A stretch of 63,798 nt of DNA, filler included, from Folioceros fuciformis (lineage: Eukaryota), in the NCBI GenBank assembly GCA_049999805.1. It is 5 parts of 5 records of this genome, joined end to end, with 100 filler letters (N's around TTAATTAATTAA, not from the genome) between each part and the next. Parts side by side here need not be neighbours in the genome. Positions count along the whole stretch, not along the records: positions 51,329 to 63,798 come from JBNGIO010004608.1; 4 more parts are not named here. One strand, given 5' to 3'. The first letter of the stretch is position 1, and every line of letters begins with the position of its first letter. The position numbers and the translations under genes were made by a program. Below the pieces are notes generated by a model, which saw only the letters and a list, made by a program, of their open reading frames with translations, ran no database searches and had not been told where the DNA came from. Shown one piece after another: positions 1 through 63,798 of the stretch.

Positions 1-151
1 TAGACCTATGCATGAGTGGTTTGACCCTTCTTTCCAAGTTGGACTCTTCTTCATAGACCTATGCATGAGTGGTTTGACCCTTCTTTCCAAGTTGGACTCT
101 TCTTCGTAGACCTATGCATGAGTGGTTTGACCCTTCTTTCCAAGTTGGACT
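1..151. repeat. 53-bp tandem repeat, about 3 copies, inside a copia element
   Basis: TAGACCTATGCATGAGTGGTTTGACCCTTCTTTCCAAGTTGGACT recurs at 1, 54 and 107. Confidence 0.9.
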
Positions 152-12095: not shown

Positions 12096-13514
12096 CATCG
12101 TTGGGTTGGATAGGCTAGGAGTATGCATATATAGCTAAAGATTCATAAAATCATGTTGCGGGAAGGAGCTAGTTTTGTGTGTTTGTATCATGAGATGGGC
12201 ACTAATGTGCTTACTCCTACTTGAGTAGGGTAGCGCCTTCTATTTTGTATAAGTGCGCCTATATATTCCTCTGATCGTGATCGTGTTGGGTTGCAATCCT
12301 CCGATTCTATTTTGGCGANNNNNNNNNNTGATCGTGATCGTGTTGGGTTGCAATCCTCCGATTCTATTTTGGCGACCTTGGTGTATCCTGTTCCAAGTAA
12401 TGTTATGTTTCTTCCTATGAATCAGGCTCATCGTGTTCGCACCTAATTCATCTACTGGCCCCAGACGTTTCGCGGCACATTCCCAAGATTGTGGGGCTTC
12501 TAGCTCAAGCTCACAACCATTGTTGTCCTTGCTAAACTTCCCAAAGCTCATAGCCAATGGTTAGTCACCTTGTTTTCAAAGTTTGGCTTGGAGTTGTATT
12601 CAACCAAAGCTTCTTTTCAAATTGTATGGAGAACTCTCACAACTTTCTCAAAAGAGAAGAGAAGCAATGAGCTTGAATCCTATGACAAGATTGACTTTGA
12701 ATCCCATTACAAGAATGACAATATCTCTGAGATTCTTTGCTTAGAAACCAACTAGCTTAGTGTCCGACTCTTGGCTTTCAAACTTTTCCTATGCAGCTCC
12801 ACTTGCTGCACATCACATCTGCCTCTACCATGAAGAGGGCTATTGAAGCGACCTCCTACTACTGTATCTGATTCTGGTGTGTGAAGTGGTCCGAACTACG
12901 AGAGTCATCCATATGAATCTTCGAGTGTGTGTCACCCCATGTCGGCATTACATGGAACATGACGCGTACAAGGCAAACACAGCAATGTGCCAAACCGGCA
13001 GCCAGGTGTCCACCCCTAGGGGGACAGCGCAGTCGTGAAATGTGGAGTAATAAAGAGCGGGGTTCCTGCATGCTGTCGGCTGGCCGGAAGAGGGCGGGAA
13101 GCCAGAGTGAAGAGGAGCGTAACACAACGCGACTCTAAGTGAGCGAGCTAGGCTCGCCCCCTTCGTGCCTGCTCACGGGGTCCGTGCACCTACTGGGAGC
13201 AGATTGTCATCACGCACTGCAGCTCTCGAGGTTGCGGGGACCGGTGCTACAGGTGAGAGTGTGCCTGACGTCGTTTTGGGTTTCTGCACAGTCGTCCGCC
13301 GCCGGGCTCCAGTGCGAGCCTGAGCCTCCTGCTGCTGCGCTGCTGCTACAGCACAACACAGCACAGCAGTGCAGTGCATGCACGCTGGCAGGCGGCCGTA
13401 GGGGCTGGATACCTGGTCTCCCAGCTGCAATTGTGGCACCTCCTTTGTGCCACTTGTGGTCCTGCTCATTCTCGAAGCGCGTGTCTCAGGCTTGGCTGCA
13501 GGTGCTCGGCCTCC

Positions 13515-21924: not shown

Positions 21925-22024
21925 NNNNNNNNNNNNNNNNNNNNNNNNNNNNNNNNNNNNNNNNNNNNTTAATTAATTAANNNNNNNNNNNNNNNNNNNN
22001 NNNNNNNNNNNNNNNNNNNNNNNN
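21925..22024. other. Artificial contig linker N44-TTAATTAATTAA-N44 (also at 32581-32680, 42480-42579, 51229-51328)
   Basis: Identical 12-mer with stops in all six frames, centred in 100-bp N blocks, four times. Confidence 0.9.
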
Positions 22025-31938: not shown

Positions 31939-32796
31939 CATTGTTGAAATCAAGGCGTAGATCTTTGTTTTGAGGTATCATGGTCTAGCCTCTCGCACTA
32001 GCTGGACAGAGCTGTCGGTCTAATCTCATATCTCTTCCTTCAAGGTAAGAGTTCTTTCCCAAGTACCAGGGTCTTCTTTGGAGCTTTGAATATTTATGTT
32101 CCCACAGCGAGTCGTCTCCTCCGTGTCGCTCTCACGGCTTAGGCATGAGTGCTTGTGTTTTTTTTGGGAAAAAGGATCCTTGCAAGGGATTAGGCAGTGC
32201 TGTTCTCTTTCAGTTTGCAGTGCGATTGTCAGTATATTTTGAAATAAGAGAGAAGAGAGCTTTGGTAATGTGGTTATTGAATGCTGAACTTGTGAGGTGA
32301 ATTAATTGTTGCATTTATCAGGTTCATAATGGTGGCCAAGGAAAATGGTGGCATGTTATCTGCGTGCATCTCTGTCACCTGGTTGAGCTACAACTTCGTT
32401 AGCTTGCAAGTGTGCTATTATGTAGCTATTTTTACCTGGAGCTGCCAATTGAGCTCCGGGATGTGTTAATAAGACTCCACGTTTTTTTGAGTTTGCAACA
32501 TAAGCATCGCCCATTTGGTATGATCAGTTGCCTGTGCACCTTTGTTCTCTGAAGTGAGCTGTCCAACAGGTGGGTTGCAANNNNNNNNNNNNNNNNNNNN
32601 NNNNNNNNNNNNNNNNNNNNNNNNTTAATTAATTAANNNNNNNNNNNNNNNNNNNNNNNNNNNNNNNNNNNNNNNNNNNNTCACAGCGCTTGATACAGTG
32701 CACCTGTTCACAAGCGACTAGGATGGCAAAGGTTTTGCAACAGTTGATGCACGGACCTTTGTCAGTTGTCTTCTTCGGGCAGATGCTATTTACTAT

Positions 32797-35391
32797 GTGG
32801 CATCGATGGACATGGGTACTATCATCTCCTCAAGTGGCCCAGCTGGTGCACTTGAGCTGGGGTCTAGGTTCAGTCGACATTTCTTTCTGGACCGGACACT
32901 TTGGTGGGATCACAGGCAACATAAGAACACGTTCCCACTGCCTCACTTCCAGCGGAGAGAGCCCCATGAGTCTATGTGGCTGAACAAGAGGCATGGGGCA
33001 GCTTGGGTGGATGTGCCCATGGCTGCTGCACATGGAGAAATGCCGATAGGTCCTCGTGCCCCTACATCCAACTGGATTATGTTGGATGCTCCTGATCGTG
33101 GCAGGTCTGCAGCATGTGAAATGGGCGTTTCCCCTAAGACTGTAAGCGAACTCTGTGAGCAGGGTGCCCTCGCCCAGGCTGTTGAGGCTCTGGGAGTTCT
33201 GGTGCAGAAAGGTTATCGTATCTCTCAGACTCTGTTGTATTCTGTCCTGAAGGAATGTGTGGTGCAGAAGCATCTGGTTCTAGGTCGTCGTGTCCATGCT
33301 TTGACAGTGAAAGGGTGTTATGAGTGGGACACGTTTTTGTGCAACCACATCATGCGAATGTATTCTTCTCATGGCAGATTGCAAGACGCGATGGATGTCT
33401 TTGCCGCGATTGCCAAACCGAATGCCTTCACCTGGGCTGCCGTACTGTATGCGCATGTTAAACAGGGGCAAGATAAGGAGGCCCTAGATTTGTATCATCG
33501 GATGCGTGGGACAGGTGTAAATGCAGATGCTCACTTGTTTGTGGCAGCTATCCAGGCTTGTGCAAGGGGTGCAGACTTGAAATCCGGGCAGCAGGTGCAT
33601 GCTGATTTGCTAGCCAGTGGGATTCAGCCTGATTTATTTGTTTGCAGCTGCTTGGTTGACATGTATGCAAAGTGTGGCAGCTTGGCCGAAGCTCGAAGAG
33701 TGTTTGATGGGCTTGAGGAGAAGGATGTGGTGACATGGAATGCTATGATAGCAGGGTATTCTCAGCAGGGGATGGGGGAGGAAGCGCTTCGTCTTCATGA
33801 CACCATGCAAGAAGGCACGGTTGTGTTGGATTCTGTCACATTTGCGTGTCTCTTGCAGGCATGTGCAGGTGTGGGGTCCTTGGCTTTGGAGAAGGGGAGG
33901 GAGCTCCACGCACAAATTAGGGATGGAGGACATCAAGCTAATGTGTTTGTAGGCAGCAGTTTGGTCAACATGTATGCAAAGTGTGGCAGCTTGAAAGATG
34001 CCCAGGGCGTGTTTGATGACCTGCCCCAAAAAAATGTGGTCACGTGGAATGCTATGATTGCCGGTTATTCCCAGCAGGGCATGCAGCAGGAAGTCTTTGG
34101 GCTTTATATGGCTATGCAAGAGGATGGCGTTGTTGCGCCTGATTCTGTTACATTTGTGTGCCTCTTGCAGGCATGTGCAAGCGTGGGCAAGCCAGCTCTG
34201 GAGAAGGGGAAGCAGCTTCATGCACAGATACAAAAACGAGGATTTCAAGCTGACGTGTGTGTAGCCAGTAGTTTGGTGAACATGTATGCAAAGTGCGAAA
34301 GGCTAGAAGACGCTCGGGTGGTGTTTGATGCAGTCGGAGAGAAAAATGTGGTGATGTGGACTGCCATGATTGCGGGATATTCCCAGCAGGGCAGGGGGCA
34401 GGAAGCCCTCGGTCTTTACAGGGCTATGCAAGACGAAGGCATTGTTGCACCGGATCCTGTGACATTTGTGTGCCTCCTGCAGGCATGTGCAGATGTGGCA
34501 GCTTTGCATCTGGGAAGGCAGCTTCATGCACAAATCAAGCAAGAAGGGCTTCAGGCTCATGGGCTTGTGGCTTGCAGTTTGATCAACATGTATGGGAAGT
34601 CTGGGAGCATGGTGGAGGCACAGCAGGTGTTTGAAGAGCTGCCAAAAAGAGATGATGCTGCGTGGAATGCTCTCATTGCAGGCTACGCTCGCCAAGGAGA
34701 CTGTGAAGTGGTATTCCGTTTGTTTCAGAATATGAGGGAGGATGGCGAGGAGCCAAACAGTATCACATTCCTTAGTGTGCTCACAGTATGCAGTCATGTT
34801 GGTCTAGTGAACAAGGGGCAACTGTACTTGCATGCTATGAGCGGGCAGTATGGCATCACACCCACGGCCGAGCACTACACTTGTATTGTGGATCTCCTGG
34901 GTCGTGCAGGTCAGCTGGACGAGGCACTATCTGTAATAAGGACCATGCCTGTGTCGCCTGATGCTGCAGTTTGGCACACGCTATTGGGTGCTTGTCGGAA
35001 GTGGAGCAACGTCCAGGTGGGACTCTTCGCTTTTGACGAGGCACTAAAGCTAGATAGGAAAGATGCCGCAGCACATGTCTTGATGTCAAATGTATACAGC
35101 AGTGCCCAGATGTGGGAGCAGGCACAAGAGATACAGACGAGGAGAGAAGGAATCCAAGCCTGGAAGCAGGCAGGGCAGAGCTGGTGGACAGATATGGATG
35201 GACTGGTGCATACCTTCTTGGTTGGTGATACTAAGCATCCAGAGAGTCAACGCATATTTACAAGTCTCCAACAGCTCATAACCAGATTGAACGAAGATCG
35301 ATATGTGCCAGTTTTAAACTCGACACAGGGAAACCTTATATCTGATCAAAATGAGGAGCTCGGTGTTGCCATGTTGTTGGGCGACACTTGA
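32797..35391 (+). CDS. PLS-class pentatricopeptide repeat protein (organellar RNA-editing factor type), E/E+ with truncated DYW, intronless
   Basis: Tandem P-L-S triplets (VTWNAMIAGYSQQG / DSVTFVCLLQACA / VFVGSSLVNMYAKCG); P2-L2-S2-E1-E2 (HYTCIVDLLGRAG, WHTLLGACR, HVLMSNVY); KQAGQSWW...HTFLVGD..HP; no HxE/CxxC. Confidence 0.95.
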   Translation: MASMDMGTIISSSGPAGALELGSRFSRHFFLDRTLWWDHRQHKNTFPLPHFQRREPHESMWLNKRHGAAWVDVPMAAAHGEMPIGPRAPTSNWIMLDAPDRGRSAACEMGVSPKTVSELCEQGALAQAVEALGVLVQKGYRISQTLLYSVLKECVVQKHLVLGRRVHALTVKGCYEWDTFLCNHIMRMYSSHGRLQDAMDVFAAIAKPNAFTWAAVLYAHVKQGQDKEALDLYHRMRGTGVNADAHLFVAAIQACARGADLKSGQQVHADLLASGIQPDLFVCSCLVDMYAKCGSLAEARRVFDGLEEKDVVTWNAMIAGYSQQGMGEEALRLHDTMQEGTVVLDSVTFACLLQACAGVGSLALEKGRELHAQIRDGGHQANVFVGSSLVNMYAKCGSLKDAQGVFDDLPQKNVVTWNAMIAGYSQQGMQQEVFGLYMAMQEDGVVAPDSVTFVCLLQACASVGKPALEKGKQLHAQIQKRGFQADVCVASSLVNMYAKCERLEDARVVFDAVGEKNVVMWTAMIAGYSQQGRGQEALGLYRAMQDEGIVAPDPVTFVCLLQACADVAALHLGRQLHAQIKQEGLQAHGLVACSLINMYGKSGSMVEAQQVFEELPKRDDAAWNALIAGYARQGDCEVVFRLFQNMREDGEEPNSITFLSVLTVCSHVGLVNKGQLYLHAMSGQYGITPTAEHYTCIVDLLGRAGQLDEALSVIRTMPVSPDAAVWHTLLGACRKWSNVQVGLFAFDEALKLDRKDAAAHVLMSNVYSSAQMWEQAQEIQTRREGIQAWKQAGQSWWTDMDGLVHTFLVGDTKHPESQRIFTSLQQLITRLNEDRYVPVLNSTQGNLISDQNEELGVAMLLGDT

Positions 35392-37260: not shown

Positions 37261-37427
37261 CATGGGGACTGATTAGTATGTCCTTGTCAGGCAGTTGGTT
37301 ACCCCTCCAAGCATTCCCTTTGTGAGGCACTGCAATCATAGTAAAGGCTGAGGAATCGGTGTGGTCCTAGCGTTGGGGAGCAGAATGGTCCTCCTCCTTG
37401 TGATTTGCCGTCGGAAATAGCCAAATG

Positions 37428-38296
37428 AGTAACGCTCCCTTCCTTACGCAGCGTAAAAGGAAGCAACGGCCTCTAATCCCGTCCATTCACTCTTAGAGTG
37501 CTCTACGACGTTTCTCACATTTTCTCTACGACTTTTCTCACATTTTCTCACACGACTCAGCACTAGGCTCCAAGTAGCTCTACTTCTTCTCACACGACTC
37601 AGCACTAGGCTCCAAGTAGCTCTACTTCTTTTCACACGACTCAGCACTAGGCTCCAAGTAGCTCTACTTCTTCTCACACGACTCAGCACTAGGCTCCAAG
37701 TAGCTCGCCGTCAGTGGCGCAGACCATTTCCTCAGGAGGAGCTCTTTATTCCAGATACTTACAAAAGAGTCTGGGGCATAGATAGTATGGCGATCTATGC
37801 CCCACTGGCTATTGCCCTAGACTCCATCTGAAAAGCTTGCTCTTCAAGCCCTCCACAACTATGCCTCAAGGCTAGACTTCTCANNNNNNNNNNNNNNNNN
37901 NNNNNNNNNNNNNNNNNNNNNNNNNNNNNNNNNNNNNNNNNNNNNNNNNNNNNNNNNNNNNNNNNNNNNNNNNNNNNNNNNNNAGGCTAGACTTCTCAGT
38001 GTCTACCCCTGTCTCTTTGAGTATCCGTGTATCAGAGTATATCCTTAAGACTCTAACACTGGCCTATTTATACTCTACAGCTAAGCCATTGCTAAAGCTG
38101 GGAATGATACACACCACTCATCTCAGAATACTAGTGGTCATTATAACTCCATCCTTCTTAAGAGGTTTTGCCTGGAACACACATCTTGTTTCTAAAGGAA
38201 GCAAGAAGCATACTTGCTTCTTCATCAAGACAACTCTAGATTTAGCTTTCACCTTTCTACTTTTAACTTTCACCTTATTTCACTTGTGCCATTACT
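37428..38296 (-). mobile_element. 3' LTR of the gypsy element, with AGTAA...TTACT termini (contains an N gap)
   Basis: Homologous to 57701-58399; abuts the PPT (minus strand AGTGGGGGAGAG, 38297-38308). Confidence 0.88.
37550..37705. repeat. 42-bp tandem repeat, 4 copies, inside the LTR
   Basis: CACACGACTCAGCACTAGGCTCCAAGTAGCTCTACTTCTTCT. Confidence 0.9.
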
Positions 38297-38367
38297 CTCT
38301 CCCCCACTAGGAAATGTCATTGTCCTCAATGACTTGCAGTATAACATGAGATCATCCATGATCCTTG

Positions 38368-41300
38368 TTACACATGTTGAAGTGAAACCCAGACAGGATC
38401 TGCAAAATCACAAAGCCTTACTAGATACTCTAGAACATTACCACGGACACAAGGCAATTCTCTTTCTGCTAGGAATTGAACAATCTCCTGCACACTATGG
38501 TTATATTGAACCAGGATAACATAGTCTTTCTTGTTCATGTCTTCATTCTTTTTCAAAATCACAAACGGTTTCAGCAAAGAGACATGAAACACATCATGAG
38601 AGAAGATCCATCTAGGCAGTTGTAGTTTGTAAGCCACATTCCCAATGCGCTTCAGAACTACAAAAGGACCTCCATACTTAGGCCTTAACTTTGGGGACAA
38701 TCCTTGAGGTACTGGGAAGTGCTTCAACTTTACTCAAACCTTGTCACCCACTTGAAATTCTGCCTCTTTCCTGTGCCTATCAGCAAACTTCTTTTGCTTG
38801 TCTTGAGCTTTGGCCAAAATCCTCTTAGCAATTTCATGTCTGGCCCTCAACTGCTCAATAAATTCACGTGGTTCTCTTGCTGCTGCCTCAAACACGCCAA
38901 CATTCAACATAGAAACTGCGTCCATTGCTTTGTTACCTGTCATATGAAAAGGTGTATAGCCTGTGGAGCTATGTACAGTATAGTATTGTTATAACAAAAC
39001 TCTGCATCCTCAAGATGATTACTCCAGTTTCTCTGGTTCATCTGTACATAGTGTTATAAGTATTCCTCTTGGATTCTATTTACCCTTTCTGTAGATCTAT
39101 GTGTATCAGGGTGATATGCTATGCTTAAACATAGTTGCACTCCCAAGCTCTTCATAAGCTCTTGCCAAAATTCCGCTGTGAATCTGGGATCTCTATCACT
39201 CACAATTTGCATAGGCAATCCATGTAACACATAGATATGCTTCTTAAACAATTGAGCAACTTCTGAAGCCTTCACTTGCTTCTTCGTGGGGAAGAAGTGT
39301 GCTTGCTTGCTGAACCTATGAACAACTATCATGATAGCTGTGTATCCATTACTGGGTGTCAATGGCATAACAAAATCCATTGATGTGCTCTTCCAAGGCC
39401 CACTTGGAATAGGCAAGGGTTGCAACAAACCTTGTGGATTTGTCTGCTCTACCTTATCCTACTAACAGTCTACACAAGACTTCACATACTCTACAATATA
39501 TTTGTACATTCTAGGCCAGTAAAACAGCTTCTTCAACTTCTCATAAGTTGTGTCAATTCCCCGATGACTAGCACTTGGCACATCGTGACATTCTGCAAAC
39601 AATTTTCTTCTCAACTCTTGAGAATCATGAATCACAATCCTGTTTTGCTTGAACATTAACAAGCCATTTCTAAGCTTAAACTTAGACCCCGGTTGCTCCA
39701 CATCATTGATCCAATCTTGCACTAATGGATCGCGCAGATAAGCCTCCTTAATCTGCGTATGAGTGTCCCTTGGCTCAATCACCATCTGTGTTGCAGCTAG
39801 CTTAGGATTCTTTAGCTTAAAAACAGATGTTAAACTCAACTCCTGCTTGCGACTGAGAGCATATGCCACGAGATTCTCTTTCCCTGGCTTATACTTAATC
39901 ACCACATCATACATCGCTAGGAAATCTTGCCATCTAGCTTGTCTTGCATTCACTCGCAGCTGATTAGAAAAGAAGCTTGTACTTACATTATCTGTGTACA
40001 GCACAAAAGATCTTCCAAGAAGATAGTGTCTCCAAATCTCGAGACAATTGATGACAACTGTCATCTCCTTCTCATATGTGGGGTATTTTCTCTCATGTTC
40101 ATGCAACTTTCTTGATTCGTAAGCCACTGGCCTACCTTCTTGCATAAGCACTCCTCCAATAGCTGTATCTAACGCATCAGTATACACTTCTATATCTTTC
40201 TTTGGATCACAGATTGCTAATACTGGGGCCGTGCTGAGTTTCAACTTGAGAAACTCGAATGCCCTTTGACATTCCTCATCCCACTTCCAAGCCTTCGCCT
40301 TCTTCAAGAGATCAGTTAATGGGGCAGCAATTTTGGCAAACATCGGTATAAATCTTCTGTACCCGCTAGCCAATCCCAAAAACATATGCACTTCATGCAC
40401 ACAGCTGCTGATTCCGCAGGGAATCCTTCGAGGTGAGGGGTAGGAGCAAGAGCTGCGAAAGGTGGAGGAGCAGCTACTGAGTCGAGGCAATTGTATAGAG
40501 TGTTATTCTCCTGCACAAGAACGCTTGGGATGTCGACTGCATTGAAATTGTTGAATGTAAGGTCAAACTGTGGTGTCTGCAGCAATCCGATGCCTGTAAG
40601 GTTCAGCAAGCTTCCATTCAGGGCATTGTGTGACAAGTCAAGAAATTGCAAGTCCTCCAAATGCGTGAAGCTTCCAGGGACAGGGCCCTCCAGAAAATTG
40701 TGGCCCACGAAGAGGGAGGAGAGTGACGCCATAAAGCCAAAGGACTCCGGAAGTTGGCCGGTAAGGTTATTGAAGCCAAGGTTGAGGTTCTTTCAGCCAA
40801 CTCTGTATGGCTTTTATCTTATCACAATCCATCCTGATTCCATCAGCAGAGACAATGAATCCAAGGAAGTCTATCTCTTCCTTAACAAAGTCACACTTTG
40901 TTATCGCTAAGAACAAAGAATTTGCCCTTAACCTTTCCAACACTTTCCTCAAGTGTTGGACATGCTCCTTTAGGGTAGAACTGAATATCAAAATGTCATC
41001 CAAGTAGATCACAACACACTCATCCAACAGATCTTTAAATATAGTATTCATGAGAGTCTGAAATGTGGCTGGTGCGTTAGTGAGTCCAAATGACATGACT
41101 AGAAATTCAAAAGATCCATACCTTGTCCTACAAGGTAGTTTTGTATTCATGTCCTTCTGCGATGCGAATCTAGTAATAACCAGCCATCAAATCTAGTATG
41201 GTAAAATACTTAGCACCTTTCAACATGTCAAACATATCATCCATCCTTGGCAAACGATAGGAGTTCTTGACTGTTATCTGGTTGAGTGCTCTGTAATCCA

Positions 41301-42479
41301 AGCATAATCTTAATCCTCCATTCTTCTTTCGCGTAAACATTACTGGCGCACCAAAAGGGGATTTTGAGACTCTAACATAGCCCTTCGCTAACAAGTTAGA
41401 CATTTGTCTCTTCAACTCTTGAAGCTCATCTAGCGACAATCTGTATGGCGCTCTTGAAGGCGGTACACTTCCTGGCTTTAGATCAATCTCATGATCTACA
41501 ACTCTCCTCTGAGGTAAAGGAGGTAACTCAGTAGGCATCAAGTCTTTAAACTCATCTAAGACAGCCTGTATCTCCTTTGAAATCTTTGGTTGCTTCTAAA
41601 ACCCATCTGAAGACCATCTTCTAGTCCTTGCAACACCAACAAATAGAATTTCTCTCCATTCTTAACACAACGCTTGAGCTCTTTCTTAGAGATGACTTCA
41701 TCAATCTTGTGTCCAAGCTGATGCTCAAGAACTGCACAACTCACTTTGTGCTTTTCATCTCCTAAGATCTATATGGTGCGTGAGTCCATGTCTACACATA
41801 CCTTATTGGCCTTCATCCATTCTAAGCCCAAGATGATTTCATGATCATCCATATCTACAACTGTGAAGCTTGCTTCTCCTGTCGAATTGCCTATCTGCAA
41901 AGGGACTTTTTGCAGCCGTCCTAAGAATTACAGCTTTCCTTTTGCTTGTTTCACTATACATGGCTCTGAAGTACTAGCCCATGTCAAACCAAGCTTACTT
42001 GCTCTGCTAAGAGAGATGAAATTATGTGTTGCTGCTAGATCAAGCAACATCTTCGCTTCTTCACGATTCACACATCCTTCTATATACATGAGCTCTCCAC
42101 CTGCCCTATGAATGATGTTGTCCTCAGCATCTTGAGACTCACCACATGTAGCCTATGCAACATGTGGCCAATCCCGTCACTTGGGATTGTCAGATTTGGA
42201 TACTTCAGTAATCCTGAGTCTTTTGGGCTTTGGGTTGTCTTGAACAACATTCAAAGTTTGTTGAGCATTGGGGCATTCATTCGCATAATGTCCCGGCTCT
42301 CCACAAGAAAAACAAACTCCTTTCCGAGAACCCATTGTCACTGTTCTCTAAGCTTCGCGCCCCCCGCGCACTCCTCAATTTCTACTACGGAAGCTCCCAC
42401 TGAAGTTGCTTCTTGCAACTGTACTTCTTTCATTATCCTTGGGAGTTCCTCTACCAGCACTGTTGGAAGAAACCCTAGT
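38368..42479 (-). mobile_element. Degenerate Ty3/gypsy chromovirus (Galadriel/Tcn1-like): gag C-terminus, PR, RT, RH, INT, chromodomain
   Basis: Order: zinc knuckle, LLDLAATHNFIS (PR), [65 protein letters not shown], then EYLVRLCDFADPVWVS (chromodomain-like). Confidence 0.95.
40401..40793 (-). pseudogene. Captured plant LRR receptor-like gene fragment inside gypsy pol
   Basis: KNLNLGFNNLTGQLPESFGFMASLSSLFVGHNFLEGPVPGSFTHLEDLQFLDLSHNALNGSL matches the plant extracellular LRR consensus LxxLxLxxNxLxGxIP. Confidence 0.85.
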
Positions 42480-43599
42480 NNNNNNNNNNNNNNNNNNNNN
42501 NNNNNNNNNNNNNNNNNNNNNNNTTAATTAATTAANNNNNNNNNNNNNNNNNNNNNNNNNNNNNNNNNNNNNNNNNNNNCAACAAGAACATACGACACAG
42601 GAGACCTAAGCTAGGAGCTTAGCTCTCTCTCGCCACCTCACTCGTCTACGAGGCCTCCCTTAAATTCAAGAGAGAGGACTTAAGAGAGCACCTTGGGTGC
42701 TCACATCATGCTCTCAAGGCAAGTTCTATCACCACTCATTCTAGGGTTGCATGCATCACACATTCTCCTTTAAATTTGGCAAGCTCTCTTGCGTGCTCCT
42801 TAAGCAAGCTTTGTTATTGATTTTGTGTGTTTTTAATATATATATATAATACCTTAATAATGATTATTATATTCATATTTTACTTTACTTATATTTTACA
42901 TCTTAATTACAATCTTTAGTTTACGGTTTTACTTTATTGACAACCCTAAATAGCAATAATATCAACATGCTTAAGATGGTATACCAATGTCTTGAGCTCA
43001 TGACCATCTACATACCATACATTGGATGACCACCAAAGCAAAATCTCGTTCTTTCAAAAGACAATTTCTCACAATACGTATCGACACTCATCCCCACTCT
43101 GCGGCCTTAACCACCCCACGTGGTGGAGAGATTTCCGCCACAACTCCCAATGAAATTAGAATTTGAAGGCAGGCCAATTAGATCATGACCTTCACTTGAC
43201 AAGCAAGAGTTTGCTGATGGAAAATGATAAGGGATCGCCCTCTGAATCTTTGTCGTGCTAGCCAAGGCAAGTGTAAGGGGGGACCCTTCCTTCCTAAGCA
43301 CATATATATGTCTGCCGACATTGAAGCCACCTGCTCCTTGGTTGCAATGCATTGGTCGAGCCCCCTGCAAGCGACTTTGGGGTGTAGAGGGGCCCCAGCT
43401 ACTTGGGAAGGGTTGCGAGGAGGGTAACCCACTCCCATCATAGGAGCAAGGAGGGTAACCAACTCCCATCATAGGAGCAGGATCCTCCACACCACTATAT
43501 TGAAAGCGATTGTGATGTCGTTGATGAATCTCCTATTGCTTAGCCTCGTTATCTTGTTGCTCTCGATATGGATGTTGAAGAGATAGAGTGTTGAGTTAT

Positions 43600-43825
43600 G
43601 ATTAGGGTTTTGGGTTTAAGCTTATCCGAAATGATATGAATAGGTGTCTTATTGGTAGATAGTTTAAATCACACTCTTTTGCTAGGGTTCTAGTGTTTCA
43701 TCATAAGGCAGATTAGGGTTTTGGGTTTAAGCTTATCTGAAATGATATGAATAGGTGTCTTATTGGTAGATCGTTTAAACCACTCCCTTTCGCAAGGGTT
43801 ATAGCGTTTCACCATAAGGCACAGC
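43600..43825. repeat. About 111-bp tandem duplication
   Basis: GATTAGGGTTTTGGGTTTAAGCTTATC.GAAATGATATGAATAGGTGTCTTATTGGTAGAT at ~43600 and ~43711. Confidence 0.8.
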
Positions 43826-47652: not shown

Positions 47653-50600
47653 TGTTAGAAATCAAGCTCTAACTGAATTGTTATTAAGAGCATACAACAC
47701 TTAGGATAGTGTAGATTATCCCATATTGAACTCGTAGTTATCTACCACCTAAGTGTTATCCGGATATATCAGGATATACCAGGGTATTGCACCTTCGAGA
47801 CTAAGGCTTACCTTATCGAGGGTTGTCCCGCCTGAAGGCTATATATGTAGCATCATGTGCACCATAAGTAAGGAACNNNNNNNNNNNNNNNNNNNNNNNN
47901 NNNNNNNNNNNNNNNNNNNNNNNNNNNNNNNNNNNNNNNNNNNNNNNNNNNNNNNNNNNNNNNNNNNNNNNNNNNNGGCGGCCATGGTGGCTATGGCGGG
48001 GGTTTGAGGCTATGGCCGTGAGTGTGAAGGTGGCTGGCAATGCAAGCCATTGAGAGGCGCAAGAGGCTCAGCGGCGTAGGCGGCGTAGGAAGCCGCAATA
48101 GGTGCCACAAGCGCAAGAGCGCGCGAAAGGCGGAGAGAGACTCAGGAGGAGCAGCAACTACTAGAGGCAACCAAGCCGTGGAAGCCATAGTAGGCCCAAG
48201 ATTTGCAAGGAGGAAGGCCTGAACTTGGCAAACAGTGTTTTGTTTTTTGAAACCTTAAGCAAAGGCTGTTTTTACTTAGCAAAGAGTCAACTGCACATTC
48301 AGGAATTGTTGAGATATGATTGAGGCTTGTGGAATGCTGGAGCTCTACAGCAGTGCAGGGAGTTGCACTCAAGATTGTCAAAAACATCTGTTGGAAGATA
48401 CATGAAAGTGTTTTGACAATTTGTTCACAAGGGACTTAGTGGCACAGCAAGCAAGACAAGGCAACTGACTTGAGGTGCATGACAAGTGTTGGTGCGTAAA
48501 GGAGCCTGAATCATGGCTAACGTGCAAGGATCAGACAATATCTCTCAGGTTGTGGGAGAGCAGTTGGATAACAAGAATTTTGCTTTGTGGAAGTTTAGGA
48601 TGAAGAACTTCTTGGTAGGTAGAGGCTATTGGGACCTCTGCACAGGTGATGAGAGTGAACCGGAGATGGATTGTACTCCATCACAGGAGCAAAAGACTGC
48701 TCACAAGCATTGGACTGAGAGAGCATGTAAAGTGTTACACTAGCTCTCCTTAAGTATTTCAGATGCTATGGTCATACAGATCACGAGATATGAATCTCCG
48801 AAGGATGCATGGGACATGCTCATAAGGAACTATGGGAATGTCACATGCTAGGAAAATCCAGTTGAAGCAGCAGTTCAACAACTTGTCACGAGGTAGCATA
48901 TCCATACTCGTGTATACAACAAAGGTGAAGACCATAGCTGATCAGCTTGCTACAATCGGTGCAAGTGTGACGGAAGATGACACGGTTGCGGTTACTCTAA
49001 ACGGACTTGGCAAGGAATACAAGTCCTTTGACACATCAATCTCTGTGAGAGCTGAGTCCCCAAGTTGGGATGAATTGGTTGCTTTGTTGCTGCATGAGGA
49101 AGTTAAGCTTGGTCTGAACACAGGTTCAGGTATGTCTCAAGGAAGAGACACTGTTTTGTTTTCTAACCAACGTGGGAGAGGCTATAGAGGTCGTGGTTCA
49201 TTCCAAGGACGGGATGATGCTTGGAACACACAAAATGAGCAAGACAATTGGCATGGAGGAAATGCGCAAGGCCAGAGAGGATCTGGAAGTTTCAGAGGCG
49301 TAGGTAGAGCCACAAGAGGAAGAGATGGTTCTTTTCAATCTCATGACCATTCCAATAGAGACAAGGAGTGTTACTACTATGGAAAGGTTGCTAAGGACAG
49401 CTATAAGCAGCAAGCACACATGAGAGGAAAAGGAAGGCAGCATGAGAACTATGCCTCCTCTAGTAATGCTGGAAATGACTGGGATAGGTTGTTTGCCATG
49501 CAACATCTCTCTGAATAGGATGGGTAGAATGATGAGAGATGGTACATTGATTCAGGAGCATCAAACCACATGACTCCGCATGGCGAGTGGTTTAACAAGA
49601 TGGATGCAGGTCCCCATGGTCATGTGTGTACAGGAGATGACACACAACATGACATAAAGCACGGAGGAATTGTTCCTCTTAGGATGCCGAATGACCAGCA
49701 GAAGACTCTGCAAGATGTGTTGCATGTTCCAACCATTACAAAGAACGTGTTGTCTGTTGGACAGATGGCTGAACAAAGTCTGCAGGTTCGATTCAATAAA
49801 GATGGATGCTTTATTGAAGAATATGACAGAGGGCGCAAACTAATTGCTAAAGGTAGTAAGAATGGACGGATGTTCACTCTATTTGCATCCATTCCAGAGC
49901 TAAATGCAGCAATGTTTACAAATGATGCATGTGCTATACGTGATGTTGAAATATGGCATAAGAGGATTGGGCATGTGAACATAGAGAAGCTGAAATCTAT
50001 GCAACTGGAAAAGCGTGGTGGACGGATTGCCCAAGTTCAAGTATGTTGATCTTGGTCATGTGTCTTCTGCATGTCAATTTAGAAAATAGTCAAGGTTTCC
50101 ATTTGTGTGACACGTGCAGAACAACTCGAGACCTTTGCAATTGATACACTCTGATGTATGGGGTCCTTCACAGAATGCATCATTTGGAGGAGCCCACTAC
50201 TATGTCTCCTTCATTGATGATTTCAGCCGGTACACGTAGCTGTACATACTGAAGCATAAGGATGAAGTGTTCAAGTCTTTCAAGGACTTCAAAAAGCATG
50301 CTGAAAATGACTTCAGCTGCTCCATCTCTTGTCTAAGATCATATGGAGGGGGAGAATATGTCTCAAATGAGTTTGACAGGTATCTTGCAGATCATGGTAT
50401 ACAAAGACAGCTAACTTGCAGATACACACCATAGCAGAATGATGTTGCAGAGAGGAAGAACAGGGTAATCATGGAAACAGCAAGGGTAATGCTGAATGAG
50501 AAGTGCTTACCTAATGATTATTGGGCATAAGCAGTGATGACATTAGTGTATGTACTGAATCGAACTCCTACGGCAGGAATTCATGATGCTACACCAATTG

Positions 50601-51228
50601 AGAGACTGTATGGCTATAAGCTGGATATTAGGCACTTGAAAGTATTTGGGTGCATTGCATATGTGCATGTACCTGATGAGAAGCGTAGGAAGCTGGATCC
50701 TAAAGTAGTGAAGAGTGTTTTTCTGGTGTATGCACGAAATAGGAAGGCATATAAGTGTTATGTGCCATCCACACATGAGATCTTGATAAGCAGGGATGTG
50801 GTATTTGATGAGTTAGCCTCCTGGTATAGCAACTCAATTGTACTACCCTATGACAAACCCACAGGGAAGAACACTGTTAAGCGTACTCCAGTAAAGAGTG
50901 AGGATGTGACCAATGGTGGATCACCAACGGTGAATCCATGGGCTGGAAGACTGCGGAATGGTAAACCCAAGATCACTGACCTAGACATGTTAGTGAGGGG
51001 GAGAGTAGAAAGCAGCAAAATTGGAAATGAGGGATATGAATCCTCAAGTAGTGAGAGCATTGACAGTGAGTTTGGCATTATGTCTGTGGAACCGCCAGGT
51101 GCTAAGGAGCAACGATATGCAAGGGAGGTTCAAACTGAACCAAGACCAAGGAGATTTGAGAGGGTTAGGAAACCTATTGATAGAGACACCTATACGAGCT
51201 ACAATGTGCAACATTATGTGTATATGAC
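47653..51228 (+). mobile_element. Degenerate Ty1/copia element: probable 5' LTR start, gag, PR, GAG-pre-integrase, integrase; truncated by a gap
   Basis: TGTTAGAAAT at 47653; LDNKNFALWKFRMKNFL; LNGLGKEYKSF; WYIDSGASNHMT; WHKRIGH; IHSDVWGP; HLKVFGCIAYVHVPDEKRRKLDPK; SRDVVFDE; many in-frame stops. Confidence 0.93.
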
Positions 51229-51328
51229 NNNNNNNNNNNNNNNNNNNNNNNNNNNNNNNNNNNNNNNNNNNNTTAATTAATTAANNNNNNNNNNNNNNNN
51301 NNNNNNNNNNNNNNNNNNNNNNNNNNNN

Positions 51329-51390
51329 ATGTATGTATGTATGTATGTATGTATGTATGTATGTATGTATGTATGCACATACATACATAC
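51329..51390. repeat. (ATGT)n followed by (ACAT)n microsatellite
   Basis: ATGT about 11 copies, then CATACATACATAC; the two tracts are mutually complementary. Confidence 0.9.
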
Positions 51391-51619
51391 TGCAAGTGCC
51401 ACCACCTTAACGGCTACCGCTGTACAGTGAATGTGACTCGTCAGTGAGGACGAGGGGCCTACTTTTATTGGCTGTCACCAGGCGTGTCTTCTCCGCAGCG
51501 TAATCGGTTGAACGGACAGGGCCCATTCGGGTAGTGAAACAAAGGCGGGAGAAGGGGAAGAGGAAACGGCACCCCGGCGCTCCCAAGTTCCATCCGGACG
51601 CTACGAGTGGGGAGGGAAT

Positions 51620-52510
51620 ATGAAGCGCATAGTTAAGACCGACCGAGGCCGAGGCACGGCTGCTTTACACGACCTCTTCTTTGCTAATCAAGCTCCAGAG
51701 CAGGCCGCGGTGAGTGAGCACAGAGCAGAAAGCGTGGGTGGCGTCGGGACGTGCAGAACAGCATTACTCCGTCATTTATTACATTGGTACGGGAGAGACA
51801 GCATGGAGTGTTACGCGATATCGAGGATGCCAATCTTCCTTTTGGTGGAATGGGATTGGTTTCCTCCGGACGATCTGTTTCTCGTCGAGTACACGGACAC
51901 AAGGAGGGTCGTGAGGGCCTACACCTCCCAGCTGGAAGCACAATCAGCTGCCCTGTTGGCATTCCACGAGTTCGCCGAGCACTGGGGAGGCAAACCAGAG
52001 TTGTACGACCAAGATCCTCGCATCCTGGAGGAGAATTGGAGCAGCATTATGGAAGTAGAGGACCAGTACGAAGCCATGGTGGAGTGCTTGAGGGCGTGGA
52101 AGGATAACCGGTTGGAGCATCCTTATGGCACGATGTATGAGGTGGAAAGGATGACTTTACCACCGGAATCGTGGAATCTTAGTCCACCATTTTCCGTGTT
52201 TGCGGTGGGGAAGACTCGCCTCCCGAACGTGTATAACCACACATTTGATCCCTTGCACGGTTGCGTCTCCATTCTGTCTCTGCATGTAGACGAGCTTGAA
52301 GCGCTGGAGGAAGCTGTCTCCCGGTACGAGGATCACGTTTCGAGAACTGGACAGGAGAAGCTCCGGGATGCGATTGAAGGATGGGAATGTATGAAATCGA
52401 TGCAGAGGTACAGGACTATGTTGAAGCGTGAAGTGGGGAGAGACCTGAAGGAGTCTGCATACCCCGAATTTGGTGTCATCTTCCCTGTCATGCAGATCGT
52501 CGTCACGTAA
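51620..52510 (+). CDS. Orphan protein of unknown function (296 aa ORF; possibly 235 aa from ATG 51803)
   Basis: Long stop-free ORF with globular composition; possible 92-nt intron 51710-51801 (GTGAGT...CAG) just before ATG 51803; two-fold internal repeat. Confidence 0.6.
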   Translation: MKRIVKTDRGRGTAALHDLFFANQAPEQAAVSEHRAESVGGVGTCRTALLRHLLHWYGRDSMECYAISRMPIFLLVEWDWFPPDDLFLVEYTDTRRVVRAYTSQLEAQSAALLAFHEFAEHWGGKPELYDQDPRILEENWSSIMEVEDQYEAMVECLRAWKDNRLEHPYGTMYEVERMTLPPESWNLSPPFSVFAVGKTRLPNVYNHTFDPLHGCVSILSLHVDELEALEEAVSRYEDHVSRTGQEKLRDAIEGWECMKSMQRYRTMLKREVGRDLKESAYPEFGVIFPVMQIVVT

Positions 52511-57000: not shown

Positions 57001-57343
57001 CCGCCTCCAGCACGTCCGGCACCTCGAATCTGCGCTTCCCTGAGGGGAGGCTCTCCTCCTGCACTCGCAGCCTCACAATGCCGTCCTTGTACACCGAGAC
57101 CTTGAGCACCAGCGCATCCCCGCCTCCTTCCGGCACAACCCTGGCCCGCAGACGGCCCTGGCTCAGGCTCACATCCTGCACCACAAGGCCGCTGCTCCCC
57201 GGAGCCCTCTCCCGCGCCTCTTTACAGAACGGCGCTTGATGACACTTGCGAAATTCATTCTCCTTCCAAGAAACCGCGGTGCCGCACAGCAGCAGCAGCA
57301 GCAGTGAGAAGCCGGCCAGGCCTCCTCCTCCTCGCGAGACCAT
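54043..57343 (-). CDS. RSW3: ER glucosidase II alpha subunit (GH31; RSW3/PSL5 orthologue), about 6 exons
   Basis: Signal peptide then [69 protein letters not shown] (nucleophile); WTGDN (acid/base); [27 protein letters not shown]. Confidence 0.96.
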
Positions 57344-57700
57344 GGCATCCCAAGCTCGCCAGATGCGAGCCGCAGGACTCGATTCTACATTTCCCAAACT
57401 AGACTATTGCTAAATGTTCTTTGACCAGTACTGCGTGTTTCCCGAGGGGAGTCTTTCGCGCAAAGAGCGCTTTTATTTATTTGTCTCAAACCAAGGAGAC
57501 TTTATTATAAAAGATGAGATGGGGAACGGGCACAGCCCAGGGCACTACTTAGTCCGTGTGTTGAAACCTACGCAAATTATCAATTGTTCAAAGATCTTTG
57601 TAATCCTGCTTACCCACCACCCGAACTTAAGTAGTGCTTCCCTGCACTCACTAAGATCTTGTAAGGGGCATTATCCAACACCAACGGAAGGGGGCATACC

Positions 57701-58399
57701 AGTAACGCCCCTTTCCTTGTGCAGCGTAAAAGGAAGCAACGGCCTTGAATCTCGTCTAAACACTCCGCAGCGCTCCACTTACAAATCACTCAAATCTCGT
57801 CTAAACACTCCGCAGCGCTTCACTTACAAATCACTCACTCCTTCTCACACGACTCAGCGCTAGGCTCCAAGTAGCCCGCTGTCCACTGACGACTCGCAGA
57901 CCACCTCCTCTACCCGCTGTCCACTGACGACTCGCAGACCACCTCCTCTAGGTGCTGCTCTTTATTCCCGATACTTACAAAAGAGTCTGGCGATCTACGC
58001 CCCACTGGCTACTGCCCACTGGCTACTGCCCTAGACTCTATCTGACAAGCTTGCTCGTCAAGCCTTCCACAGCTATGCCTCCAGGCTACACTTCTCACTG
58101 TCTGCCCCTTTCTGTATTAGTGTATCACAGTATATCCTTAAGACCCTAACACTAGCCTATTTATACTCCACAGCTAAGCCACTGCTATTGCTGGGAATGA
58201 TACACACCACTCATCTTAGACTACTAGTGATCATTACAACTCCATCCTTCTTAGGAGGTTTTGCCTGGAACACACATTTTGTTTCCAAAGGCAGCAAGAA
58301 GCATACTTGTTTCTTCATCAATGCAGCTCTAGATTTAGCTTTCACCTTTCTACTTTTAACTTTCACGTTGTTTCACTTATGCCACCTTATGCCATTACT
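57701..58399 (-). mobile_element. Solo LTR (699 bp) of the same gypsy family, AGTAA...TTACT termini, 5-bp TSD
   Basis: ATACC at 57696-57700 and 58400-58404; colinear homology to 37428-38296. Confidence 0.92.
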
Positions 58400-58674
58400 A
58401 TACCCAAGCTTAAGACGTGGTACATAGCATTAGCCAAAAACGAAAGATGATATCCTTTGCCTAAAGCACGCAATATATAGCACACAATGAGGACCACCAT
58501 AAGCCTTGGTGCATACATTGGCAAACTTATTAAAACCCTTATCCATGATCATCAAGTCTAGATGGCCAATGGGATGAATGAGTTGTCATTGTGCATAGGA
58601 AAGTATTTGTGGACCTTCATTATTGTGCAACCCTATACTACCCATCTCAACGTGTTTACAATAGTATGTCCATA

Positions 58675-59897: not shown

Positions 59898-62800
59898 TTA
59901 GTGAGCAGTCCCAGCCTTGGCGCTTGATGAAATTTGTTGAACACCAGACGTGTGCTTCTCATGAACAGACTTGGGAGGTGCTTTAGTAAGTAGGTCAGCA
60001 ACATTCTCACTAGTAGGAACATACTCAACATATACTTCCTTGTTGTCAGCTGCTTGATGAATAAAATGGTGTGTTATCTCTATGTGCTTCGTTCTCGCAT
60101 GAAATACAGGATTTCGAGATAGAGCTATGGCCGATTGACTATCATATAGGAGATGAGTTGGCCCTGTTGGGAGTTGATGTAAGCCCTTCAAAAAAGTTCG
60201 AATCCATAAAATCTCCTTTGCTGCTTGAGTCATGGCTCCATACTTGGCTTCGGTACTTGATAAGCATATGGTGGGCAACTTCTTACTTGACCATGAGACA
60301 ACTGAGCCACCAAGAAAACAGCAGTATGCAGCTACACTTCTCCTAGTATCTAGGTCCCCAGCCCAGTCTGCATCACTATATGTTGACAATCCTAATCCAT
60401 CATGCTGTTTAAAGTACCTAAGGCCTTTCCTGGGTGTCCCCTTTAGGTAACGAAAAATTCGTTTTACTGCAATCCAATGTTCCAAACCTGGATTCTCCAT
60501 GAACTGGCTCACATTGTTGACAGCCCTACTGATATCTAAGCGTGTCCATCCAGCTAGATATAACAAACAACCTACGGCCTGTCTATATGGCTTATTAGCC
60601 ATCTCTTCCTTCTCAGCCAATGTAGTAGGTGAGTTCTCCTTCGAAAGCTTCCCATCAACCACCATGGGAGTGGCCACAAGCTTAGCATCCTCCATCTGGA
60701 AACGTCGCAAAAGTTGTAGCACATAGTGCTCTTGGTGGATGTCTATTGTGTGGTCAGCATGATTAAAGTGAAATTGGACACCCAAGGAAAAAGAGAGTTC
60801 ACCCAAGTCGAACATTTCAAATCTAGTTAGCAAAATTCTTTTGATCTTGTCCATCAAAATTGTTGAGGTACTGAAAAGGAAATTATCATCAACATATACT
60901 GAGAGAATTATAAAATCTTGGCCCTCACACAAAATGTGAACACTGGAGTCAGCATCCAAACACACGAAGCCTAGCTCAATCAGCACCTAGTGAAACACTT
61001 TGTTCCATGCTCTTGATGATTGTTTGAGGCCATACAAGGTCTTGAGCAGCTTCAAAACTTTGTGAGGGTTCCTGATGTAACCTTCTGGCTGACACATATA
61101 TATGTCTTCCTTTAGTTGGCCATGCAAAAAAGCAGTTTTTACATCTAGTTGGTGAACAGTCAAATTGAAATGGGCCGCAATTGCTAATAGAATTCTAACG
61201 GAAGTTGCTTTTACTACAGGGGAAAAGTCTCATTATAGTCTAGATCAGGGACTTGGCTATATCCTTTGGCTACTAACCTAACCTTAGGAGACGCTGGCAA
61301 CTGTGGTGGTTGAAGCTCTAGCTGTTGGGGTTGAGCTGGTTGCGCCGGAGCTAACTGTGACAACTGAGGTGGAACTAGCCATTGCGGTGGAGTGTTGTCC
61401 CCCTCTGAATCCATAAGCTTCTCATCATTGTCATAGAGAGTCACCATGGAAGGTTCAAGGGGCTCATCATCTTAAACACCAAAGATAGAAGAAGAATCCT
61501 CACTATGAGCTTGTATTTGTTGAAAATATCGTTGAAGTAAAATATGCTCATTAAAAATACATTTCGAGAAATAGTCAATGAGCAAGTGGCAGGATCAAAA
61601 AGTTTGTACCCCTTCACATCATCAGAATAGCCAACAAATATATGTCGATGTGCCTTTGGATCCAGCTTAGTGAGCAACTCAGGAGGAATGAAGGAATATG
61701 CAGGAGAACCAAACACACGTAAATGAGAAATGCGAGGTTTCTTGCCTGTCCAAAGCTCATAAGGGGTTGTTGATCCCAACTCTTTTGTAGGCAACCGATT
61801 CTGAATATAGTTGGTGGCAACAAGAGCCTCTGCCCAATATGCCCGTGTGAGGCCAACAAACAACAAACTAGCCAAAGTAGCCTCCTGAAGAGTTTTGTTC
61901 TTCCTCTCCTCTCCGCAAAAGAATTTTGTGGTGGAGTGTATGGCACTGTAAGCTGATGTTGAATTCCTTCTGCTTCATACAAGTTCTTGAATGCCCGACT
62001 TGTATATTCTCCGCCATTATCAAACCTAATAATCTTCACACGTGCTCCAATCTTCCTTTGGGCATGTCGCACAAAAGATTGAAAACAATCTAAAACTTCA
62101 CTCTTATGTTTGATAGGATACACTATACAATATATTGACCACTCATCTATAAAGGTGATAGTAAGATGCACCGCCAAAAGAAACTGTGAACATGGGGCCA
62201 CAAACATCACTATGAATGGCCTCCAAAGTAGTAGTAGCTCGAGTTGATAGTATGTCCTTAAAAGGCAATGAATGAGCCTTGCTCATGGCACAGGAGTCAC
62301 AAAAAGGACGGGGATCAGAAGTGAAAGTCAAGGTATCACGAAAACTCCCACTATTTGCTAAAGTAGACAAACGCTGAAAATTTACGTGTCCAAGGCGACA
62401 ATGCCAAAGGTACATGCTAGACTGTGACTAAGCAACATGTGTAGAGGGCATAGAAAGTGGCAGAGTGTAAACATCCAACAAGTAAAGATCATTATAAAGC
62501 TGACCTGAAAACAACTGTAAACCAGTGTCTACGCTAGATATTTTGCAACTTATGTGATCAAAACATATTTGACAAATATGCTCCTCGGAAAGTTTTAGAA
62601 CAGACATCAAATTTTTTGTCATAGCAGGTACGTAGAGTACATGTATAAGGGTGAGACTCCCTCCACTGGGCAACCTAATAAGGACAGAACCCTTGCCTTT
62701 GATAGACAAACCACTATCATCCCCTAGCAACACAAATTGCAGGCTATCATTGGAAGGGATGAAAGATGAGAAAGCACGTCTATCGATGCAAATGTGACTC

Positions 62801-63780
62801 ATTGCACCAAAGTCTAAGAACCATCTATCTCGCTGAACAACTAATGAATTGAGGCAAACAGCAAGGATAGAAGGTGTCTTAGCTTGAGCTACAGCCATGT
62901 TAAACTCTTGGGTAGTGGACTCCCGCTTTGGCTCACCACTCTTCTTCTTCCGGCAATCCCTCTCGTAATGCCCTGGTATTTTTCACCAATTACAGGTGAA
63001 AACCTTCTTTTGTGTGCCTTGCTGACTCGATGGAGATTGGTAGGGCATGCCTCGTCCTCAGCCACGTCCTCGATATCCACCTCTCCCTCTTGATGCAAAA
63101 AGTACTCGATTGGGGTTGTTGCTTAAAGAGCCTTTATTCTTGAGAAGAGATCTTGAGCGCTCCTCTGCCAAAAGTGCTCCGATTACTTCTTCTAAGGTCA
63201 CAGTAGGTTGTTGGCCCGCAGTTGTTGCTTGAACTGCAGCGCATATGGTAGCATTTTGTGAACTCACTAGCTGGCTGTATGTGTTTGGAAGAGAGGCGAG
63301 AAGGGTAACAACTACCTGAACCTCTGATAATACAGTACCATAACAAGCCAAATTAGCCCTCAAGGTCCTAAATTTGTGAATGTAGGCCTCAACAGGCTCA
63401 GTGTCCTTCATTCTCAAATTGAAAAAGTCACGATATGCATGCACCATGGAGGCTGAGCTTTTATCTTCATATATGAGTTTAAAAACCTTCCACACAACAT
63501 GTGAAGTTGTTGCACCTATGGTGTGTGGGATCATGGTCTTGTCTAGGGCTGCAATCAGTATTGATCGAGCCCTTCTGTCCTTATGCTGCCAAGCTAGGAC
63601 ATCCTCAGGAGGATTTGTGGGGCAGATTTCAGTGCCATCCACAACAGACATTAACTCATGTTCTTCCAAAATTTGAGTGACCCTAATGGACCAGATTGCA
63701 TAATCAGTCCCGTTGAATCTATCTTGATCCTTAAAATCAATTTTAAAGGGAAGAACAGCAGAAGGTGCTTCTGCTGAGTC
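59898..63780 (-). mobile_element. Degenerate Ty1/copia gag-pol
   Basis: gag (LMSVVDGTE), WFLDFGAMSHIC (PR), LWHCRLGH, IHSDVCGP, RFDNGGEY, HLRVFGS, RLVAKGYSQ, SVYVDD, YSDADWAGD, ARTKHIEITHHF; frameshifts and stops. Confidence 0.95.
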
Positions 63781-63798
63781 AAAAAAAAAAAAAAAAAA

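Follow-up and report, generated by a model that had tools for sequence, protein, structure and literature searches.

A probable land-plant Ty3/gypsy family with AG...CT ends of the long terminal repeat

LTR ends described in plants and insects

To our knowledge, the integrase requires no sequences in cis other than the ends of the long terminal repeats (LTRs). The termini TG...CA are a hard filter in widely used finders and reference sets. The papers cited below are quoted from their accessible portions.

In the Del chromoviruses the U3 attachment site is TGTAACACCC, and GGG occupies positions -8 to -10 of the U5 attachment site of type A (Cruz et al. 2014, PMC4029996). The end types other than TG...CA that are reported for plants are TGCT, TGGA, TACA, TGTA, TGGT, TACT, TATA, TGTT, TCCA, TAGA and, in Rosaceae, AACA (10.1101/137141, PMC9804982, PMC5659011). 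AG..CT is absent among the end types named in these three sources (text and Table S3 in the case of PMC9804982), and non-canonical gypsy elements are rare in the plant surveys. According to the LTR_retriever preprint (10.1101/137141), only the first T is invariable among the four terminal LTR bases. In lotus the first LTR base is given as "always 'T'", TACA is the sole non-canonical gypsy end in Table S3, and CT-3' ends are the commonest non-canonical type in copia elements, with 6203 copies (PMC9804982). The Rosaceae AA..CA ends were described in copia (Ale) and TRIM elements (PMC5659011). In insects, AGT/AnT LTR ends were described for Drosophila errantiviruses of the gypsy, ZAM and Idefix subgroups (PMC5408687), in agreement with the original prediction made from the present DNA, which had named insect gypsy elements and errantiviruses as the main bearers of AGT-type ends.

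The treatment of LTR ends differs between annotation tools. The de novo set of REXdb was built with LTR_FINDER requiring 5'TG/3'CA (PMC6317226). LTR_retriever searches seven listed non-canonical motifs; those named in the text are TG..GA, TA..TA, TA..CA, TG..CT, TACT, TGTA and TCCA, and AG..CT is not among them (10.1101/137141). DANTE_LTR reports TG/CA only 'if present' (PMC11358816), so domain-first tools of this kind would still find a family with AG...CT ends. The expectation that finders based on TG..CA would miss the family agrees with the REXdb rule and with the motifs named for LTR_retriever, but would not apply to DANTE_LTR. No AG..CT or AGT..ACT LTR ends were found in print; this is weak evidence of absence, with subscription papers and repeat databases outside the scope of the search. 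We regard AG...CT as a modestly novel variant, resting on two copies.

The window, that is, the whole stretch of DNA analyzed here, is 63,798 nucleotides long and comes from Folioceros fuciformis (GCA_049999805.1). Linkers of the form N44-TTAATTAATTAA-N44 are found at 21925-22024, 32581-32680, 42480-42579 and 51229-51328, and the parts between them are roughly 10 kb. Since the window is a chain of separate contigs, adjacency across the linkers is not biological. The linkers give stop codons in all six reading frames. The features of the two LTR copies and of the truncated element are collected in Table 1.

Table 1. Positions in the window of the features of the truncated Ty3/gypsy element and of the solo LTR
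Feature	Position	Strand	Remarks
3' LTR of the truncated Ty3/gypsy element	37428..38296	-	Reads AGTAATGGCA...GGGAGCGTTACT in element orientation; 869 bp as assembled
Candidate U3 TATA box TATAAATA	38065..38072	-	LTR position 225 in element orientation; putative promoter function
Polypurine tract GGGGGAGAG (plus strand CTCTCCCCC)	38297..38305	-	9 nt, directly adjoins the LTR; read directly
Integrase C-terminal SH3-like domain (SH3_Tf2-1)	38371..38733	-	E 1.5e-17
RNase H, integrase zinc finger, integrase core	38988..40400 (also delimited as 38988-40502)	-	About 50% identity to plant gypsy polyproteins over 472 aa, colinear
Foreign DNA of about 385 bp in pol, between reverse transcriptase and RNase H	40401..40784	-	LRR_8, E 1.3e-10
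Reverse transcriptase (RVT_1)	40785..41595	-	Spread over two frames
Aspartic protease (RVP_2 / gag-asp_proteas)	41772..42152	-	Two ORFs
Gag zinc knuckle (zf-CCHC)	42180..42347	-	E 3e-08; most upstream part of the element present
Contig linker N44-TTAATTAATTAA-N44	42480..42579		Element cut inside gag; the DNA beyond belongs to another contig
Target-site duplication ATACC (plus strand)	57696..57700		3' side of the solo LTR in element orientation
Solo LTR	57701..58399	-	699 bp; reads AGTAATGGCAT...GGGGCGTTACT in element orientation
Target-site duplication ATACC (plus strand)	58400..58404		5' side of the solo LTR in element orientation

Several other sequences share the window. Three Ty1/copia fragments, cut by contig ends, are located at 78-752 (+), 48826-52510 (+) and 59898-63798 (-), with RVT_2, gag, Pol_BBD, SH3_retrovirus and rve matches. 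There are no LTR pairs in the window that could serve as canonical controls. Unusually long uninterrupted host reading frames code for an O-fucosyltransferase at 3373-5301 (-), a xyloglucan fucosyltransferase at 9121-10880 (+, over three frames), a protein with UBA and C5-methylase domains (DRM-like) at 13269-15539 (+), a PI4K at 26244-28148 (+) and a PPR protein with E/E+ motifs at 32722-35388 (+). The G+C content is 43-59% in 2-kb windows. The host is a land plant, and these features suggest that it has few or short introns. A tandem pair of 111-bp units, 91% identical, is found at 43600-43821 in the contig neighboring that of the truncated element and is unrelated to the LTR family.

Two copies of the repeat and their ends

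When the window was compared with itself by blastn, the 3' LTR and the solo LTR appeared as homologous segments of the plus strand and as the sole two copies of the repeat; a third copy was not found in the window by either blastn or nhmmer. The blastn segments measure 308, 269 and 65 bp, with identities of 88.96%, 75.8% and 84.6%, respectively, and the nhmmer envelopes extend as far as 38296/58399 and, on the opposite side, 37428/57701. In the aligned blocks 274/302 and 314/363 bases are identical, which corresponds to 86-91% identity or 9-14% divergence. Both copies are old.

On the plus strand both copies begin with AGTAAC and finish with ATTACT, and they have the same 5-bp terminal inverted repeat, AGTAA/TTACT. 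By chance an inverted repeat of this length is found at 80 of 60999 window positions for a span of 699 bp. In element orientation the integrated ends of the LTR are AGTAAT...GTTACT. The first 10 and the last 8 bases are identical in the two copies, while the resemblance ceases just beyond the AGTAAC/ATTACT ends, where the adjacent bases differ (G versus T on one side, C versus G on the other). The boundaries of the LTR are thus fixed by the points at which the homology between the copies stops, and are independent of any motif and of the target-site duplication. The ends are not the canonical TG...CA but AG...CT in 2/2 copies, with the same non-canonical base at all four termini (two ends in each of two copies). 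Neither copy contains a CA in the final 14 bases at U5, and just outside the ends the two copies have no TG in common; the TG at 37426-37427 borders one copy only. Because both ends of both copies are of this form, the AG...CT ends appear to be a trait of the family and not a product of decay after insertion.

The solo LTR has no internal sequence on either side. With the ends fixed as above, a match of all five flanking bases occurs by chance at 95 of 60989 window positions, or 0.16%. The exact 5-bp duplication at this copy, together with the same 3' boundary at a second insertion, supports the view that the AG...CT ends were heritable (2/2 copies) and competent for integration. In the region 57690-57701 (minus strand) the last base of the solo LTR followed by the duplication reads TGGTAT, the same 6 bases with which the primer binding site for plant initiator tRNA-Met begins. 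However, the next 6 bases agree at only 1 position, so this candidate primer binding site at the 3' flank was rejected as a coincidence.

The solo LTR lies upstream of a gene for glucosidase II alpha (GH31), about 360 bp from its first in-frame ATG (57343-57341, minus strand; span 57341-57701). It has the same orientation as this gene, with U5 toward it, and could contribute promoter or read-through transcription. In a search confined to longer proteins, the gene shows 57-67% identity to those of angiosperms.

The 3' LTR, which has also been given as AGTAATGGCA...GCGTTACT in element orientation, contains a gap of 100 N at 37884-37983. The same 15 bp, aggctagacttctca, are found on both sides of the gap, at 37869-37883 and 37984-37998, and the solo copy is continuous at the matching position. 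The gap is probably an assembly artefact of overlapping contig ends and, given the identical 15 bp on its two sides, the real length of this LTR is probably about 754 bp. The TATA box candidate is kept in the solo copy at 58158-58165 (LTR position 235 in element orientation). Downstream of it the tandem repeats differ between the copies (37545-37706; 57748-57837; 57875-57950; 58001-58031): in one copy a unit of 42 bp is repeated 3.9 times, whereas three arrays are found in the other (45 bp x 2, 38 bp x 2, 14 bp x 2.2).

The polypurine tract extends to a purine run of 11 nt if the first two LTR bases (AG) are counted, and it is found about 260 bp downstream of the integrase SH3 domain. The adjoining tract and the Ty3/gypsy integrase upstream on the minus strand identify the repeat as an LTR, and the copy 37428-38296 as a 3' LTR. 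Much of this had been anticipated in the original prediction. The homology of 57701-58399 with 37428-38296 was recovered by blastn and nhmmer, the AGTAAC/ATTACT termini with their 5-bp inverted repeat were read in both copies, the flanks of the solo copy proved to be a perfect duplication (57696-57700 = 58400-58404 = ATACC), and the polypurine tract said to abut at 38297 is indeed GGGGGAGAG at 38297-38305 on the minus strand.

The truncated element and its kinship

The order of domains in pol is protease, reverse transcriptase, RNase H and integrase on the minus strand, as determined by Pfam, and the region is colinear with three plant polyproteins in tblastn. The assignment to Gypsy made in the original prediction is confirmed by this arrangement, which includes the gag zinc knuckle, the protease, the reverse transcriptase, the RNase H and the integrase in order on one strand. 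The element had also been described as full, and this description does not stand: it is interrupted within gag by the linker at 42480-42579. No 5' LTR and no primer binding site were found within the window by blastn and nhmmer, the element stopping at the linker at 42480.

The foreign segment 40401-40784 in pol encodes a plant-type leucine-rich-repeat fragment, KNLNLGFNNLTGQLPESF..., and may be a captured piece of a host gene or a later insertion. The stretch from RNase H to integrase contains 3 in-frame stops; of the 138 columns in which 95 relatives show conservation of 90% or more, it differs at 22. To judge from the frameshifts, the in-frame stops and the foreign fragment of about 385 bp, the truncated copy is evidently dead. 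An inspection of the integrase residues had been proposed together with the original prediction; it gave the 22/138 differing columns, and with 3 in-frame stops in the same stretch these changes are inseparable from decay. The altered end recognition by the integrase, likewise part of the original prediction, is therefore not legible in this copy.

The reading frame of RNase H and integrase matches only plant gypsy polyproteins, with 45-51% identity. Pfam Chromo is present in 35 of the first 60 long matches listed (hand count). A phylogeny of the reverse transcriptase and integrase had likewise been suggested. In a quick tree of 95 relatives, whose rows carry no lineage labels, the element is found on a long branch (1.07) at the base of a clade of 86 rows, with support of 98. 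This clade consists largely of plant polyproteins bearing chromodomains.

No chromodomain is detectable in the element itself. Pfam Chromo gave no match in it even at E up to 10, and BLASTP against two chromodomain-bearing relatives found nothing. A profile made from the tails of 72 relatives likewise gave no acceptable match (E 7.1), and the tblastn alignment to P0259 reaches into the first half of the P0259 chromodomain just with the end of a longer match. The integrase tail '...VQEIVQFLAERELPCVRGNVLEYLVRLCDFADPVWVS' resembles a decayed chromodomain by eye only. The name chromovirus used in the original prediction is therefore retained in part: by kinship (35/60 Chromo-bearing matches and the 86-row clade) the element is likely a chromovirus, but its own chromodomain is undetectable. 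The AG...CT "lineage" rests on two copies in one window.

Origin of the ends and comparison with known systems

We consider it likely that the repeat is the LTR of an old, now dead Ty3/gypsy family of a land plant, with the integrated ends 5'-AGTAAT...GTTACT-3' and not 5'-TG...CA-3'. The left end of U3 is found exactly at the polypurine-tract junction, GGGGGAGAG^AGTAAT, and the same first base of AGTAAT is the first inserted base of the independent solo copy. The right end, ...GTTACT, is the last base common to two independent insertions. Against this explanation it counts that there are only two copies, both old, and that the target-site duplication can be read at the solo copy only.

The insertion of the solo copy involved the 5-bp staggered cut that is standard for this superfamily. 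As 5'-AG is complementary to CT-3', both strands that were transferred to the target would have ended ...CT-3'OH. Apart from its outermost base, the U5 end GGGGCGTTACT is similar to the Del/Tekay sequence TGTAACACCC read as its reverse complement. On the simplest history, therefore, an attachment site of chromovirus-like type would have exchanged its terminal base pair on each side, from T to A in U3 and from A to T in U5. The inverted repeat would have been retained in this exchange, and later copies would have inherited the change through reverse transcription. In plants the TG..CT type, which is one-sided, is already known, and the family would represent its symmetric form, with an end type in common with the AGT/AnT ends of insect errantiviruses. 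It is only tentatively that we propose a chromovirus-like land-plant lineage which swapped both terminal base pairs and whose integrase would join ...ACT-3' ends as the insect errantiviruses do. That this integrase was specialized for CT ends, and not merely tolerant of them, seems doubtful.

It is somewhat unlikely, though conceivable, that the ends are real and the integrase was unchanged. An ordinary chromovirus integrase would then tolerate the outermost base pair, and AG..CT would be a drifted neutral variant in a small subfamily, possibly mobilized in trans by canonical relatives. One-sided CT, GA, TA or TT ends do occur in plant elements that transpose (PMC9804982, PMC5659011), elements with different ends group together in the integrase trees of lotus (PMC9804982), and the remaining U5 bases have the appearance of a usual attachment site of the Del type as given in PMC4029996. 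However, the complementary change at both ends has kept the inverted repeat, as co-adaptation to symmetric recognition would. The four ends bear also on the idea that canonical TG...CA ends were mutated after insertion in these two copies, both of which are indeed old and diverged (86-91% identity in the aligned blocks). The same transversion would be needed at four independent sites with the neighboring 5-9 bases unchanged, and the presence of one and the same base at all four ends despite 9-14% divergence makes such mutation very unlikely, to the point of being hardly credible.

The boundaries might be misplaced, with the ATACC match due to chance and the family an ordinary one with TG...CA ends, considering that TGGCA is located 5 bases inside the U3 start and that the duplication comes from a single copy. 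However, the homology stops exactly at AGTAAT and GTTACT with differing bases outside, neither copy has a CA within 14 bases of its U5 end, and a 5/5 match of the flanks is expected by chance in only 0.16% of positions. A reading with TA...TA ends, in which the LTR would start TAATGG, was rejected as its flanks, TATAG and CTGGT, do not match. We find misplaced boundaries highly improbable, and we give equally little credence to the proposal that the repeat is not an LTR but some other mobile element, whose inverted ends and duplication are each 5 bp long, located beside a truncated gypsy element by chance. It is true that no LTR pair is seen and that 5-bp terminal inverted repeats are formally transposon-like. 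On the other side, the repeat borders on a polypurine tract, with the spacing from the integrase that is expected, LTR retrotransposons normally make a 5-bp duplication, a TATA box is found in the U3 position, the repeat is without a transposase-like reading frame, and variable tandem repeats of such a kind are common in LTRs.

If the tentative reading of a chromovirus-like lineage with both terminal base pairs swapped is true, this would be the first A-initial palindromic end type other than TG/CA in plant gypsy elements, contradicting the published rule of an invariable first T, and the family may be abundant in its genome and yet missing from libraries constrained to TG/CA, such as REXdb. 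A gypsy family with AG...CT ends shows that the "invariant" first T can change in plants. The CA-ended and CT-ended attachment sites on an otherwise Del-like end would form a natural pair on which the reading of the terminal base by integrases could be studied. Annotation of lesser-studied plant genomes under this constraint would mis-bound or drop such families, and a practical remedy would be the use of structure-based finders without a motif constraint or of domain-first tools.

The Del/Tekay chromoviruses of angiosperms have the same Ty3/gypsy domain order, the nearest protein relatives of the element bear chromodomains, and a 5-bp target duplication is likewise found at the solo LTR. The U5 end GGGGCGTTACT matches the reverse complement of TGTAACACCC at 8/10 positions and resembles the quoted U5 attachment site of type A in having GGG at -8 to -10, G at -6 and AC at -3/-2. 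In detail, the solo copy has GGG at -8 to -10 and the truncated copy GAG; positions -2, -3 and -6 agree and position -1 differs. However, the U3 start AGTAATGGCA matches TGTAACACCC at only 5/10 positions, and the outermost base is A, not T, at the U3 start and T, not A, at the U5 end. The Del/Tekay LTRs are 1.2-4.5 kb long in the table of PMC4029996, against about 700-750 bp here. The element differs further in its undetectable chromodomain, and Del/Tekay would be a candidate lineage for it.

The errantiviruses have LTR ends AGT...AnT with several complementary terminal bases, in the source cited above, and the repeat described here has AGT...ACT with 5 complementary bases. They differ in that their hosts are insects and that they have three reading frames including env, while the relatives of the present element are plant gypsy polyproteins. 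With only about 260 bp between the integrase SH3 domain and the LTR, there is no room for an env reading frame after pol. Errantivirus target duplications are 4 bp long and sequence-specific, while the duplication here is 5 bp.

The plant elements with ends other than TG...CA, as far as the cited surveys describe them, have clean duplications of 4-6 bp and heritable ends, as is the case here. Their types are mostly non-palindromic, whereas AG..CT is palindromic. The only A-initial type reported among them, AA..CA, belongs to copia and TRIM elements, and the present family is gypsy. The CT-3' right end is the commonest type in these plant elements, and it is the same right end as that found in both copies of the repeat.
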